Assembly: GCA_963827755.1 (NCBI GenBank)
Contig: CAWHCQ010000021.1
Span: 96,001 to 160,000, forward strand
From: an uncultured Gammaproteobacteria bacterium
Lineage (GTDB): Bacteria; Pseudomonadota; Gammaproteobacteria; UBA9214
DNA: 64,000 nt
Direction: 5' to 3'
Shown here: positions 14,095 through 18,685 of the stretch, piece by piece
Layout of the letters: every line of letters starts with the position of its first letter
How positions within the stretch are numbered: the first letter of the stretch is position 1
Made by a program: the position numbers and the translations under genes
Notes under the pieces: generated by a model
What the model saw: only the letters and a program-made list of their open reading frames with translations
Database searches by the model: none
Told to the model about the DNA's origin: nothing

Positions 14095-15168
14095 TCAGGA
14101 ACCGGTCACCAGGTACTGGTGCTGCGTGCCCTGTTTCCAGTGGATCACATTAGCCATCGCCCTGCTGGCATAGATTGTCCCGTCTTTTGTAATCATCAGT
14201 ATTTCGTGGACATCCATTTTGTCTGCGATCATCTTCCAGTCCCTGGTCCCGGCGATGAGCAGCGTGGTGGCGGCGGCACTTGCGACCATGGCGCTTTTAT
14301 GGGTCACGGTTACTGACTGTATATCCTTCACCGGCAGGCCGGTGCGCGGGTCGACGATATGCCGGTACACGCGACCTGTTTTTCCGGCCGAATGATTGAA
14401 TGCGCGCACCGTGACCACTGCCTTGTCATCGATGTTTTCCAGTGAGGCTATCAATTCTTTCCCGAAGCGGCCGGGAATGCCGATCCACCAGTCATGATCG
14501 CCCCGCGTACCGATCGTGCGGACATTGCCGCCGATATCGATCATGGCATTGGTTACGCCGAGCGCGGCAAGTCGTTCGATGCCTTTATCCAGCGCAACGC
14601 CGCGGATGATGTCGGTGAATTCCAGTTTTACCAGCCGGTTCCGGCTCGAGACCCTGTTGCCCTTGATAACCAGGTCATCGATCGACGGCTTCTGCGAGAT
14701 TATTACTTCGACACGCTCGTTGACGAGACGCTGGACTTCATCCGGGTAGGGGGATTCACCGCATTCATCCTTGTCGCAATGAAATTCCCAGAAGGCCGTT
14801 AGCTGGCCCGTGGCAGGGTTGAACATTCCATCACTCAGGCTGGATAGTTTGCCGGCATTGCTGATCAGTTCAACGAGGGTGTCGCTGACCTCAATGGATT
14901 GCCCCTTACTGATGGCCTCGTTGAGGCGATGCAATTCGCCTTCCAGCTCGAAGGTGTAGCCGATGGAATCAAGCACCTGCAGGTCTTCTTCCACGCTGAG
15001 CGCAGCTGTTCGTGCTGCATCCGTTGGCTGACCGATAATGGTTATCTGCACAAATGTCCCGAGGGCATTTAACCGGTATTCGAAAGCGTGACCGTTTCGA
15101 TCGCAGCTTGTAAGCAGGAACAGCATGGTTAAAGCCACGAGGGTGGCGAGGGTGAGCTTGTTTTTCAT
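14095..15168 (-). CDS. ApbE-like FAD:protein FMN transferase lipoprotein with degenerate motifs
   Basis: Lipobox LTSC, G.FNPATG.L..FW, DIGGN, W.IGI, HIVDPRTG and SVTV. Confidence 0.8.
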   Translation of the reverse strand: MKNKLTLATLVALTMLFLLTSCDRNGHAFEYRLNALGTFVQITIIGQPTDAARTAALSVEEDLQVLDSIGYTFELEGELHRLNEAISKGQSIEVSDTLVELISNAGKLSSLSDGMFNPATGQLTAFWEFHCDKDECGESPYPDEVQRLVNERVEVIISQKPSIDDLVIKGNRVSSRNRLVKLEFTDIIRGVALDKGIERLAALGVTNAMIDIGGNVRTIGTRGDHDWWIGIPGRFGKELIASLENIDDKAVVTVRAFNHSAGKTGRVYRHIVDPRTGLPVKDIQSVTVTHKSAMVASAAATTLLIAGTRDWKMIADKMDVHEILMITKDGTIYASRAMANVIHWKQGTQHQYLVTGS

Positions 15169-15217
15169 GAAGACACCGGATGGTTTTATGAAGGCGTTGA
15201 TCATATGCATGCAGTTC

Positions 15218-15478
15218 TCAGAAATAGCCGGTGTTGATCCACATGTGGACCATGATGCTGGCTGTATAGCCTAAAGCTATTACCGGTGTCCAGCGCAAAT
15301 GTCCGAAGAAGGTATACATGCCGCGCGACAGGTAACCAACGGTGTGCGCGTCAGGTCAAGGCCATGGGCGCCCGTGGCTTCAGCGAGCCGGCAGCAATGC
15401 CGGAACAAGCAGCACAGCACGCCGGCCAGCGCGGTGAGACAGATGCTTGATCGTGAGTGTCTGTGTAAGGAATGGCAT
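15218..15478 (-). pseudogene. nhaD: Internally deleted remnant of a Na+/H+ antiporter NhaD
   Basis: Hand translation: leader...LDLT(A)HTVGYLS fused to RGMYTFFGHLRWTPVIALGYTASIMVHMWINTGYF*, resembling the N- and C-termini of proteobacterial NhaD. Confidence 0.7.
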
Positions 15479-15489
15479 CTTGGTTCTTC

Positions 15490-17448
15490 TCAGAAAAATA
15501 CATTCATTGTGAGCAGCATGACGACGAGGAACAGCAGCGTCATGATGCCGCCCGCACGCATGAAATCGGGTACCCGGTATCCGCCCGGCCCCATCAGCAG
15601 TGCATTCACCTGGTGTGTCGGGATCAAAAAGGAGTTCGATGTGGCAATGGCCACGGTCAGGGCAAACACGGCGGGGTCTGCACCTGCGGGAATCGCGAGA
15701 TTGACGGCAAGCGGTACCAGCAGCACCGTCGCGCCGACATTCGACATTACCAGCGTGAAAAAGGTCGCCAGCACGGCGAGCGCCGCCTGCAATACCCAGA
15801 CGGGTACCTCACCCAGTATTTCGAGCGTCTGTTGTGCTATCCACGCAGCGGTCCCGGTATTTTCAACGGCCATGCCCAGCGGGATCAGGCTCGCCAGCAG
15901 GAACACGGTTTTCCAGCTGACGGCTTCGTAGGCCTCGTCGATACTGAGCACGCCGGAGAGCACCATGCCGAGTGCGCCGGTCAGCAGGGAAACCGACAGG
16001 CGCAGGTCGGAGAACAGTACCAGGGACAATGCCACGAGAAAGAAAAACAGGGCGTGACCGACTTTTTGCGGGCGGGTCTCCTCGCGTGGATACTCGGTGG
16101 TTACGACGACAAAGTCACGGTTGGATTCGAGTCGTGCCAGTGCATCCCAGGTGGTATGCACCACCAGGGTATCGCCGGCCTGCAGGGGCATGTTGCGTAT
16201 GTCTTCACCTTCGCGCATCGTCTTGCCGGCGCGGTGCAGGCCGATCATGGCGAGGCCGTATGTTTTGCGCATCCATACATCACGTGCACTTTTGCCGATC
16301 AGCTGCGAGCCGGGCGGGATCACGACCTCGGCAACACCGGAACGGCTGGAGGAGAGTGATTCGCTGAAGTTGTTCAGGCCCGCAAGGCGTATCAGTCGAT
16401 ACTTGCCGACGAACTTTTCGACGTCCAGCGGCGCTGCCAGGATGCCGAGCACCATGTTGGCCTCGATGCCGACGTCGCGGGCCAGCGCACCCGGGCCGAT
16501 GCGGGTTTCCTTGTCGCTGCGCAGGGTGGCAATGATGCGTATATGCCCGGAGCTTTCAACATCGTCGAACATGAGGCCGACCAGCGGGCTGTCGGCCGGC
16601 ACCTTTATTTCAAACATCGCGTAGTCGATTCCGTAGACATCCTTGAAATAGCTCATGGTGTTGGAGGCGACGGTGCTGCTTTGGGACTGACCGCTCGGCA
16701 GGACATACTTGCCAAGCAGGAGAAAATAAATAATTCCCGTGGCCACCAGTGCCAGGCCGACCGGGGTGACGCTGAACAGGCCGAAGGCGCTCATTTTCTG
16801 GCCCGGCGGCAACGCCTGGTTGGACGTCATCATCAGGTCGTTGAGCAGGATCAGCGGGCTGGAGCCCACCATGGTGACGGTGCCGCCGAGGATTGCGCAA
16901 AAGCCCATCGGCATGAGCAGGCGTGACAGGGGCAGGCCCGAGCGCGCCGAGATGCGGCTGACAACCGGCAGGAACAGGGCGGCGGCGCCGACGTTTTGCA
17001 TGAAGCTCGAGATGATGGCAACGGTGCCGGAAATCAGCGGGATGATGCGTTTCTCCGTCCTGCCGCCGCGCTTGAGGATAATCCTGGCCACGGTATTCAT
17101 GACACCCGTTTTATCCAGGCCCTTGCCGACAATCATCACGGCAATGATGGAGATCACCGCGTTACTGGAAAACCCGTCGAACAGGTGTTGTGCGGGTACA
17201 AACGGATGATTGAGCCCGAACAGGGGCCCGATAAGCGTCATCAGTCCGAGCAGCACCATGATGCAGATGGCTGCAACGTCGACGCCGACAATTTCAAAGA
17301 CAAAAAGATAGATCGTCAGCAGCAGGATGCACGAAACCCAGGCGACTTCCGGCGTCGGAACGACACCGATGAGCAGATAGCCGATAATCAGAAAGACGAT
17401 GGCGCCGACAACGGGCTTGATCGAAGCCTTTATTGATGATCTGCTCAC
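15490..17448 (-). CDS. SLC13 family permease with TrkA-C (RCK-C) domains
   Basis: SSFMQNVGAAAL, GGTVTMVGSSP, two cytoplasmic TrkA-C-like segments, MSNVGAT and PTHQVNAL. Confidence 0.9.
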   Translation of the reverse strand: MSRSSIKASIKPVVGAIVFLIIGYLLIGVVPTPEVAWVSCILLLTIYLFVFEIVGVDVAAICIMVLLGLMTLIGPLFGLNHPFVPAQHLFDGFSSNAVISIIAVMIVGKGLDKTGVMNTVARIILKRGGRTEKRIIPLISGTVAIISSFMQNVGAAALFLPVVSRISARSGLPLSRLLMPMGFCAILGGTVTMVGSSPLILLNDLMMTSNQALPPGQKMSAFGLFSVTPVGLALVATGIIYFLLLGKYVLPSGQSQSSTVASNTMSYFKDVYGIDYAMFEIKVPADSPLVGLMFDDVESSGHIRIIATLRSDKETRIGPGALARDVGIEANMVLGILAAPLDVEKFVGKYRLIRLAGLNNFSESLSSSRSGVAEVVIPPGSQLIGKSARDVWMRKTYGLAMIGLHRAGKTMREGEDIRNMPLQAGDTLVVHTTWDALARLESNRDFVVVTTEYPREETRPQKVGHALFFFLVALSLVLFSDLRLSVSLLTGALGMVLSGVLSIDEAYEAVSWKTVFLLASLIPLGMAVENTGTAAWIAQQTLEILGEVPVWVLQAALAVLATFFTLVMSNVGATVLLVPLAVNLAIPAGADPAVFALTVAIATSNSFLIPTHQVNALLMGPGGYRVPDFMRAGGIMTLLFLVVMLLTMNVFF

Positions 17449-17547
17449 GTGCTACTCCGGTAAAAATATATGCACGGCAAAACCTTTATATGGCATTACT
17501 GTGCGGGACTGACCTGCAGGATATACGGTCCTGGCGACCGCGGTAAT

Positions 17548-17853
17548 TCAGGCGGGGTGAGGCGTCGCGGGCGGACCGTGGAGGATAAGGCTGGAGTACG
17601 CGTCACTGTTTGCAAGCGGTGATAATCCATTGCCATGAATTGCCGGGCCGGGGAATGGCGCTACGCTTGCAGGCAGGCACGGCACGCGGGATACAGTCTT
17701 GTCATCATCATCGGATGTGTCGGTTGCTTCTGACTTGATTTCTGTTTCCACCGGCGTGCACTCGGCCAGGCTGTTAACGCTGGCAGACAGGAAGACGGCC
17801 GTCAACAGCGCCAGCCACAGCCAGTGCGAGGATTTTTTACGGTCGGCAGGCAT
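17548..17853 (-). CDS. Small exported uORF with C-terminal HGPP motif; candidate arrest/leader peptide
   Basis: Signal peptide (RKK, hydrophobic core, SLA-E), acidic DTSDDDD tract, ends ILHGPPATPHPA*; about 100 nt upstream of the SLC13 gene. Confidence 0.6.
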   Translation of the reverse strand: MPADRKKSSHWLWLALLTAVFLSASVNSLAECTPVETEIKSEATDTSDDDDKTVSRVPCLPASVAPFPGPAIHGNGLSPLANSDAYSSLILHGPPATPHPA

Positions 17854-17903
17854 CAGTCGATTTTGCTCTCGGAACCGGTTTGCGGGGGCTTCTTGTCGAT
17901 AAG

Positions 17904-17932
17904 AATATAACAAGATAGTGATTTAGCGTCAA
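17904..17932 (-). promoter_or_regulatory. sigma70 promoter of the uORF-SLC13 unit
   Basis: Minus strand TTGACG-N17-TATATT. Confidence 0.65.
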
Positions 17933-18085: not shown

Positions 18086-18685
18086 CTAGCGGACGTTGAA
18101 AGAGTCCCGCGCACTGTCGAGCGATTCCTGCCAGGCCCGGGTGAACCGTGGCCACCAGTCCGGTTGCCTGTCCTGCAACCATTCGCGGGATGCCTCGATG
18201 AACCAGCGGCCGATGGCGGGCAGGTTGTGCTTCCTGAAGTGTGCAATACGCTTGCCGATGCGCGCACTCAGCGGCGGCCTGGCAAGCATTTCCAGCAAGG
18301 TGTATTCGCGTTGCTTGGCGGCCCAGAGTTCACTGTTGATGTTGCGTTCCAGTTTCAACAGACGTTGCTTCAGCTGTTCCAGTTCCAGGTTCGGGGTAGT
18401 TGCCTGGTTTGTTTGCACCCGCATCTTGATGCGTTTTTCCAGCAGCGCGACGCGCTGCTGCAGGTTTTCAAGATCAATCGGGCCGCGCTGTGCCGGCATA
18501 TGCACGGTGCCGCTCTTGACCGGAAAGACCCTGGTTCCCGGAATGGCCGTGCCGGCGGATTGCCGGGCCGGGCGCGCCGGGGGGGCAGGGTGTGTGCCGG
18601 GTCGGCCATTGGCCCGGGCGGCGATATGGGCTGTCTCCTGTGGATCGGTATCGCTGTCAGTTTGGCCAAATTCCAGAAGCCTCAT
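18086..18685 (-). CDS. Hypothetical protein: Pro-rich N-terminus, coiled coil, Trp-rich amphipathic C-terminus
   Basis: Non-overlapping part of ORF 18086-19909; heptads LENLQQRVALLEKRI and LEQLKQRLLKLERNI. Confidence 0.65.
   Translation of the reverse strand: MRLLEFGQTDSDTDPQETAHIAARANGRPGTHPAPPARPARQSAGTAIPGTRVFPVKSGTVHMPAQRGPIDLENLQQRVALLEKRIKMRVQTNQATTPNLELEQLKQRLLKLERNINSELWAAKQREYTLLEMLARPPLSARIGKRIAHFRKHNLPAIGRWFIEASREWLQDRQPDWWPRFTRAWQESLDSARDSFNVR

Follow-up and report, generated by a model that had tools for sequence, protein, structure and literature searches.

A leader open reading frame between a promoter and a permease gene

The DNA analysed here, referred to as the window, is a stretch of 64,000 nucleotides (nt) from an uncultured Gammaproteobacteria bacterium (GenBank assembly GCA_963827755.1, contig CAWHCQ010000021.1, positions 96,001 to 160,000 of the forward strand). 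On its minus strand a short open reading frame (ORF), hereafter the leader, lies between a sigma70-type promoter and the gene for a DASS/CitMHS-type permease. An earlier note, made from the window sequence alone, had proposed that this ORF encodes a secretion-coupled arrest peptide controlling a Na+-transport operon. The comparisons reported below make it likely that the leader is a Sec-targeted peptide of the RAPP-like (R/H-x-P-P) arrest class, whose stalling tunes the downstream ion-transporter operon. Its features are as follows (positions are those of the window).

17904-17932, minus strand: sigma70-type promoter, with -35 element TTGACG (17932-17927), 17-nt spacer and TG-extended -10 element TATATT (17909-17904); 10 of 12 matches
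17853-17548, minus strand: leader ORF P0001, with ATG start, 101 codons and TGA stop (17550-17548)
17764-17853, minus strand: signal-peptide-like N-terminus, residues 1-30, reading MPADRKKSSH, then WLWLALLTAVFL, then SASVNSLA, followed by Glu31
17701-17724, minus strand: acidic tract TDTSDDDD, residues 44-51, 43-50 residues before the P-site proline
17569-17607, minus strand: arrest-type motif S83-DAYSSLIL-HGPP95, with HGPP at 17580-17569
17574-17572 and 17571-17569, minus strand: predicted P-site Pro94 and A-site Pro95, by analogy to RAPP peptides and the toeprinting of CruR (PMC12992588)
17551-17568, minus strand: six-codon tail ATPHPA, of fixed length and variable sequence, before the stop at 17550-17548

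The product reads MPADRKKSSHWLWLALLTAVFLSASVNSLA followed by ECTPVETEIKSEATDTSDDDDK and ends with SDAYSSLILHGPPATPHPA immediately before TGA, with six codons after HGPP. It matched no Pfam family at E <= 0.01 and no NCBIfam family. The N-terminus combines a lysine- and arginine-rich n-region, a hydrophobic core of at least 12 residues and small residues before Glu31 (SLA, then E). Most of what the earlier note had described was found: the promoter, the 101-residue ORF with ILHGPP six codons before its stop, the acidic tract and, by hydropathy and the -3/-1 rule only, the Sec signal. The two cysteines that it had listed are present in the window (Cys32 and Cys59), but their positions are not conserved in relatives.

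The promoter scan returned two sites in the region, compared with 0.5 +/- 0.7 in shuffled sequences. A similar element, TTGAC(A/G/T)-17 nt-GTT(A/G)TATT, was seen by eye ahead of the ATG in 13 of 15 related loci, being not evident in L018 and incomplete in L020. The same scan found no promoter-like site on the permease strand within the 99-nt spacer that separates leader and permease gene.

The motif and its distance from the stop are conserved

A search of 5.8e9 proteins recovered 82 homologues, P0001 included. HGPP is present in 80 of them, RGPP in one and neither in one; exactly six residues follow the motif in 79, three in one and seven in one. Thirty-two matches among 1.84e9 cluster representatives added RGPP members and one HAPP. 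We aligned 108 proteins without gaps on the first proline and dropped seven in which the motif was absent or the tail of another length. The other 101 all carry (H/R)(G/A)PP followed by six or seven residues (96 HGPP, 4 RGPP, 1 HAPP).

Within these 101 sequences the frequency of the commonest residue is 1.00 at both prolines, 0.99 at the glycine and 0.96 at the histidine, and averages 0.80 over the nine residues before the motif. It falls to a mean of 0.35 over positions 12-40 and 0.39 over positions 41-63 before the proline, and is 0.47 in the tail. The well-conserved part of the leader is therefore confined to the last 13 residues before the tail, SDAYxSxILHGPP. Judged by this alignment, motif and distance from the stop recur in relatives far above chance, and the pattern by which the earlier note thought such a peptide could be recognised, a signal-like N-terminus and (R/H)(A/G)PP kept while the middle diverges, is the one seen in the family. 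Across 25 distinct loci aligned as DNA, the codons for Asp, Ala, Tyr, Leu, His, Gly and both Pro differ at their third base although the encoded residues are constant. Since wobble positions vary and residues stay, selection acts on the peptide.

A diverged branch (G061, G062, G067 and G002) has at this site, again ahead of the permease, a leader of 105 residues that ends in RGPP and seven further codons. This finding strengthens the proposed arrest-peptide design of a signal and a motif near the C-terminus, encoded upstream of the regulated gene. In the RGPP branch the sequence preceding the motif shows no conservation, compared with near fixation under HGPP, and the acidic zone persists as EPxxDD at a similar distance. 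Such tight context with HGPP and loose context with RGPP fits the published context dependence of HGPP and tolerance of RGPP (PMC10951233, PMC12992588). The HGPP family and its RGPP sister branch thus offer a natural contrast between a context-dependent and a context-tolerant staller, with upstream conservation differing accordingly.

The leader family aligns without gaps, which fixes all distances from the arrest proline. The hydrophobic core lies some 66-84 residues before this proline and its end is 69-75 residues away in most members. No lysine or arginine follows the core in the gapless family profile. Positions 41-63 form an acid-rich zone almost free of lysine and arginine, with Asp or Glu in 63-65% of sequences at positions 42-44, and an Asp at position 10 is near-invariant. 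The ribosome tunnel holds 30-40 residues of a nascent chain. Given this length and the fixed distances, signal and acidic segment would both have just emerged when the ribosome reaches Pro-Pro, and this geometry supports an export-coupled stall.

The same prolines could be read in another way. In a leader sensing proline or elongation factor P (EF-P), the speed of translation through Pro-Pro would report prolyl-tRNA supply or EF-P activity, both of them tied to osmotic state, and export would not be involved; the mgt operons of Salmonella have comparable leaders with proline codons. The Pro-Pro pair is indeed invariant (101/101), prolines are frequent in the tail (51-53 of 101 sequences at two positions), and the operon handles Na+ and osmolyte-type transport. 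We nevertheless regard this explanation as highly improbable, because it accounts neither for the invariant H/R-G before the prolines and the nine conserved residues upstream, nor for the conserved signal-like N-terminus and its fixed distance. Moreover, RAPP and RGPP arrests are reported to be refractory to EF-P (PMC12992588).

Distribution and natural variants of the leader

Among 41 related genomes searched, homologues were detected in eight genomes of the same genus, including that of the window, with E-values from 1e-5 to 3e-65. All eight copies share the signal-like N-terminus, the diverged middle, SDAY(P/S)(S/G)xILHGPP, exactly six further codons and TGA, and all have the permease about 100 nt downstream. 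A profile built from these eight members matched 15 of the 54 genomes of the family, and a profile including diverged members matched 18 of 54; the order to which the window belongs consists of this single family and hence of the same 54 genomes. In a class-wide sample the profile matched none of 397 genomes of other families, the window's own genome being the sole match among the 400 scored. The related loci come from metagenome-assembled genomes of uncultured Gammaproteobacteria, one labelled Ectothiorhodospiraceae, and the DNA sequencing runs listed with the locus are mostly sediment metagenomes, with a few seawater and soil runs in which it has a small share.

In all 15 loci inspected (the first eight and seven further ones) the leader shares its strand with this permease and precedes it, with spacers of 99-112 nt, or of 209-217 nt in diverged members. 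The N-terminus of the permease was found in 33 of the 54 genomes. No such ORF was seen upstream of it in the members inspected of a group with 70-77% identity (G047, G049, G065, G069 and G001), nor in G024 or G007; this listing of absences leaves out G020, G014 and G004, whose upstream regions were not parsed by the motif search. The search for related loci was seeded with the eight-row alignment.

Two recovered loci are unusual. In L020 (genome G006) seven codons follow HGPP and the spacer measures 217 nt; the hydrophobic segment of this leader is preceded by no ATG, GTG or TTG, which indicates an unusual start or a decaying copy. In L032, a metagenome contig, the sequence beyond the start of hairpin B (described below) is unlike that of all other loci and the stretch examined holds no permease start, possibly as the result of a rearrangement or insertion.

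Two classes of natural allele bear on function. In G010 (L059) and G022 (L062) a deletion runs from about codon 11 of the leader to beyond hairpin A, the stem-loop that follows the leader stop (see below), and leaves promoter and permease ribosome-binding site (RBS) in place. Such a deletion fits a dispensable cis-regulator. The short frame that remains in these two genomes ends on the Shine-Dalgarno (SD) sequence (GGAGTAA). In three metagenome contigs (L037, L041 and L042) a stop codon stands one codon after HGPP (HGPPA, then stop). Five codons on, the old stop survives in frame in two of these loci and is mutated in L041, and hairpin A is intact in L037 and L041, the two early-stop loci that were aligned. 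These loci argue that the tail residues are not needed as peptide, as fits a stall at Pro/Pro. Deletion and early-stop alleles both point to informative mutants.

We also considered whether the leader might be an ordinary small periplasmic protein, for instance an accessory subunit or ligand-binding partner of the permease, with SDAYPSxILHGPP as a binding or processing motif and any pausing incidental. Strict co-occurrence with one permease clade, the signal-like N-terminus and a moderately conserved acidic region are all compatible with such a role, and the stalling reading rests on sequence comparison. We judge the role very unlikely, however. Only the 13 residues before the tail are well conserved, the 60-residue mature body scoring 0.35-0.39; the sole motif position that changes in the diverged branch, H to R, stays within the staller class; and the tail is fixed in length and free in sequence. 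Furthermore, two genomes have lost the peptide and kept the permease, and 15 of the 33 permease genomes are without a leader.

The downstream genes form an ion-transport operon

Family searches placed the following features downstream of the leader.

17446-17459, minus strand: permease RBS, with GGAG at 17459-17456 and GTG start at 17448-17446
15490-17448, minus strand: DASS/CitMHS-type permease with TrkA_C domain, 652 amino acids (Pfam CitMHS 3.9e-73, TrkA_C 1e-12, Na_sulph_symp 9.7e-12)
15221-15355, minus strand: nhaD remnant with internal deletion, a 45-codon frame within the 280 nt between the permease and ApbE genes
14095-15210, minus strand: ApbE-family gene (FAD:protein FMN transferase family; Pfam ApbE 3.7e-49), with the same neighbour in relatives

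The permease scored below the cut-off of TIGR00785 (dass), and its relatives of solved structure in the PDB, VcINDY and SLC13, are distant. Its start is a GTG behind GGAGT in all 27 loci in which it was located, out of 28 distinct loci (the exception being L032). Strict upkeep of so weak a start codon could mean that initiation rate or RNA pairing is under selection.

In the nhaD remnant a short N-terminal stretch (PD..HTVGYL) runs in frame into the C-terminal 36 residues, which are 83% identical (E=1e-20) to the C-terminus of a relative's 486-residue protein. That protein is NhaD (NCBIfam NF038006, E=1.6e-196). Some relatives keep the full gene between permease and ApbE: in G023, G064, G068 and G013 it overlaps the end of the permease gene and is followed by ApbE. 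In the window's genome (G000) and in G012, G015 and G021, ApbE directly follows, with no full nhaD between. The occurrence of full nhaD in relatives indicates that the ancestral operon combined a DASS-type permease with a Na+/H+ antiporter. Thus the SLC13-TrkA-C gene, nhaD remnant and apbE-like gene listed by the earlier note were each identified by family matches on the expected strand, and the link to Na+ turned out to be stronger than it had claimed. None of the candidate regulated genes (permease, NhaD, ApbE) encodes a component of the export or insertion machinery.

RNA structure of the spacer

17525-17541, minus strand: hairpin A, GCGGUC-GCCAG-GACCGU, starting 6 nt after the leader stop
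17472-17504, minus strand: hairpin B, predicted; three of its base pairs are maintained by double changes in an eight-sequence alignment

A single stem-loop had been drawn across 17495-17547 (ATTAC/GTAAT, GCGG/CCGC, CAGGA/TCCTG). This is not the predicted fold of the spacer (z = -0.9) and its outer arms are not conserved; hairpin A is conserved instead. All its alignment cells are paired in 25 of 25 aligned sequences, it starts 8 nt after the stop in one clade, and its predicted folding energy is -9.0 kcal/mol in the window and -8.3 on average. The loci of the RGPP branch have different, GC-richer hairpins 6-9 nt after the stop. Since these hairpins differ and sit alike, it is the position of the hairpin that is kept and not its sequence.

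This placement raises the possibility of an attenuator of opposite polarity, in which hairpin A and a U-rich tail act as a weak intrinsic terminator, arrest turns the operon off and efficient export turns it on. A ribosome escaping HGPP to the stop codon would melt the hairpin and permit read-through; once its A site holds the stop codon, the stem begins at about +13 from its P site, as counted on the sequence. If the ribosome is instead held at Pro94, the hairpin, some 17 nt past the leading edge of the ribosome, would remain free and transcription would end; the footprint sizes behind this geometry are general values rather than computed ones. Such an arrangement would explain the fixed six-codon tail (79/82), and the 10 nt after hairpin A contain at least five T in 18 of 25 sequences and at least six in 11 of 25. 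On the other hand, there are only three T in these 10 nt in the window and none in the three RGPP-branch loci scored, and a terminator scan found nothing on the leader strand. The stems are also short (6-7 base pairs, about -8 kcal/mol), and the lineage of L037, L041 and L042 keeps hairpin A even though translation there ends 15 nt further upstream. With the T-rich tail lacking in the window and the RGPP branch, a terminator-based attenuator is a live rival and no general explanation, and we consider it unlikely.

RNAalifold predicted a longer-range helix, on 8 as well as on 25 sequences, which pairs the His codon and the following G (CACG) with the CGUG of the GTG start, and the Pro-Pro codons with the SD. 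In this helix 95% of alignment cells are paired, compared with 21-49% in slid controls, and its covariation score was reached by 14 of 500 shuffles; both arms are otherwise constrained, and double changes are absent from the pairs of the SD arm. Single-sequence ensembles had the SD mostly paired in all 27 sequences, with the arrest window as partner in only about 10 of 27. An anti-SD in the Tyr-Pro-Ser codons was also tried and rejected: 83% of cells pair, and covariation was no better than in shuffles (277/500). We found no consistent anti-RBS partner elsewhere in the leader mRNA.

Relation to known arrest peptides

HGPP and RxPP are stallers selected from random libraries; both depend on the preceding residues (PMC7897499, PMC10951233) and are reported to be under-represented in proteomes (PMC7897499, PMC10951233, PMC12992588). 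Because HGPP occurs in homologues of RAPP peptides, it was one of the motifs with which Sec-linked arrest peptides were sought (PMC10987492). RAPP and RGPP are described as stalling in many upstream contexts, refractory to EF-P and depleted from proteomes, RGPP inducing the most stable arrest; they are over-represented close to the C-terminal end of small proteins, secreted or in the membrane, whose genes precede a variety of others, with TonB receptors, YcnI, PCu(A)C, PepSY and DsbA-like as the named classes (PMC12992588). By the traits tested here (position as an upstream ORF (uORF), C-terminal motif, conserved upstream residues and signal sequence), the leader is probably one of the RAPP-like arrest peptides.

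The nearest parallel in design is CruR (DUF2946) of Bordetella pertussis, the uORF of a TonB-dependent transporter operon. Like the leader, it has a product targeted for secretion or to the membrane, a RAPP-type motif near the C-terminus and a non-Sec transport operon downstream, whose regulation depends on the motif in the case of CruR (PMC9426467, PMC12992588). Its arrest at the Pro/Pro codons was demonstrated in the PURE system (PMC12992588), and this arrest prevents Rho-dependent termination until copper relieves it (PMC9426467). Unlike the leader, CruR senses copper via a conserved CXXC and acts through Rho-dependent termination; the leader has HGPP, no match to DUF2946 or any Pfam family, no conserved Cys pair and a spacer that by eye is T-rich rather than C-rich.

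ApdA, ApdP and the 'RQH' family share with the leader an N-terminal localisation signal and a C-terminal R/H/Q-(A/G)-P-P followed by few codons. Adjacent upstream residues are needed for their arrest, and HGPP occurs in some homologues (PMC7897499, PMC10987492). They are encoded upstream of secDF, secA or yidC, whereas the leader precedes an ion permease and NhaD, and no family match relates ApdA or ApdP to the leader beyond the four-residue motif. VemP of the marine bacterium Vibrio alginolyticus is likewise a secreted arrest peptide and ties export efficiency to Na+ availability (PMC7897499). Its arrest sequence is unrelated, however, being free of proline at the P and A sites, and its output, SecDF2, is part of the export machine.

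In SecM of E. coli about 130 residues separate signal and arrest point, compared with about 70 in the leader. SecM also has a signal sequence and a C-terminal arrest sequence ending in RAGP, at which the A site holds Pro-tRNA and which only a short tail follows, and its stalled ribosome opens a hairpin hiding the secA SD (PMC7897499); RNA modelling did not demonstrate an SD-hiding hairpin for the leader, which moreover lacks FxxxxWIxxxxGIRAGP and has no SecM family match in Pfam or NCBIfam. The HGPP staller from random libraries in E. coli (Tanner 2009; Woolstenhulme 2013), compared here through published summaries, has the same four residues and a stalling that depends on the preceding seven (PMC10951233, PMC7897499). 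It is synthetic, whereas the motif of the leader occurs in nature, is conserved and comes with an export signal.

The leader is thus outside CruR/DUF2946 and SecM and, because the regulated genes are no export factors, outside the strict Sec-monitoring class. Full-text searches found no arrest peptide with SLC13, NhaD or antiporter output (the supplementary tables of PMC12992588 and PMC10987492 lay outside these searches), and the main text of PMC12992588 makes no mention of SLC13, permease, symporter, TrkA or citrate. The claim that no arrest peptide with such an output has been described therefore stands as far as these searches reach, but placing RAPP-like uORFs before diverse non-Sec genes is a published idea (PMC12992588). 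The design is known; the leader family and its output appear to be undescribed. Natural HGPP arrest peptides have so far been reported only as variants inside Sec-linked families, and here HGPP is the rule (96/101).

Proposed mechanism

By analogy with RAPP peptides, the ribosome would stall with Pro94 in the P site and the codon of Pro95 in the A site, the SDAY(P/S)SxIL segment holding the chain in the upper exit tunnel. At this point the tunnel would just have released the signal sequence, which lies about 70-84 residues before the proline, and the acidic segment of the early mature region, at about 41-63 residues, and both could engage the translocon. A pull on the chain would be expected to release the stall, and stall length would set expression of the operon, ancestrally permease, NhaD and ApbE. 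As to polarity, analogy makes us lean slightly towards arrest switching the operon on, as in SecM, VemP, MifM and CruR, by a route that could be opening of the RBS or protection from termination.

Several results weigh against an export-coupled stalling leader or against particular versions of it. The signal peptide was called by eye, from hydropathy and the -3/-1 rule only, the leader accompanies the permease in only 18 of the 33 permease genomes, and none of the listed sequencing runs with the locus is an RNA run. A RAPP-like motif by itself often does not suffice for stalling: most E. coli and B. subtilis proteins with such motifs gave no efficient arrest in vitro (PMC10987492). The idea that the arrest codons are themselves a selected anti-RBS was rejected, as their pairing was no stronger than that of other windows in 22 of 25 sequences. 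The arrest window is among the top-ranked RBS partners only in one clade (L004, L006 and L044) and ranks 24-204 of 341-464 in the other 22; the fraction of synonymous recodings that bind the RBS at least as well is 0.05 in that clade and 0.12-0.79 in the other 22. When the footprint of a stalled ribosome was masked, predicted RBS openness rose on average from 0.20 to only 0.23, and by more than 0.1 in 4 of 25 sequences. These modelled RNA tests do not support simple unmasking of the SD by the stall.

The acidic zone invites a further version, in which the leader is a gauge of membrane potential or ion-motive force, stall duration reading either the potential or, as with VemP, Na+-driven SecDF activity. 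The pull of the membrane potential on acidic residues crossing SecYEG is enough to release a SecM stall (Ismail 2015, summarised in PMC6028853). At arrest the acidic stretch, free of lysine and arginine and 41-63 residues from the peptidyl-transferase centre, would be the only strongly charged part of the chain; it would lie within or next to the SecY channel, directly after the inserted signal sequence. We think it rather improbable that the leader works in this way. If it did, feedback on a Na+/H+ antiporter and a permease of Na+-coupled type would make the system a homeostat of ion gradients and not of the export machine.

If the stalling that we propose for the leader is true, it extends secretion-coupled translational control to Na+/H+ homeostasis. 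It would also provide a compact, 100-codon system of fixed geometry for asking which force releases a RAPP-like stall.

Other observations in the window and genome

Six candidates for other arrest-like small ORFs were found in the genome, among which only the leader ORF looks real. Depletion of HGPP was tried as a further indicator on a crude proxy proteome and set aside as uninformative: the word occurs once against 6.0 expected, and other xGPP words are equally depleted. A 138-residue ORF that matched no Pfam family at E <= 0.01 occupies positions 18086-18502 on the minus strand, between mnmG and the leader promoter. The leader profile has a second, weak match in the same genome (G000:C11:106225-106419, minus strand, locus L022; E=0.001), with three stop codons inside.

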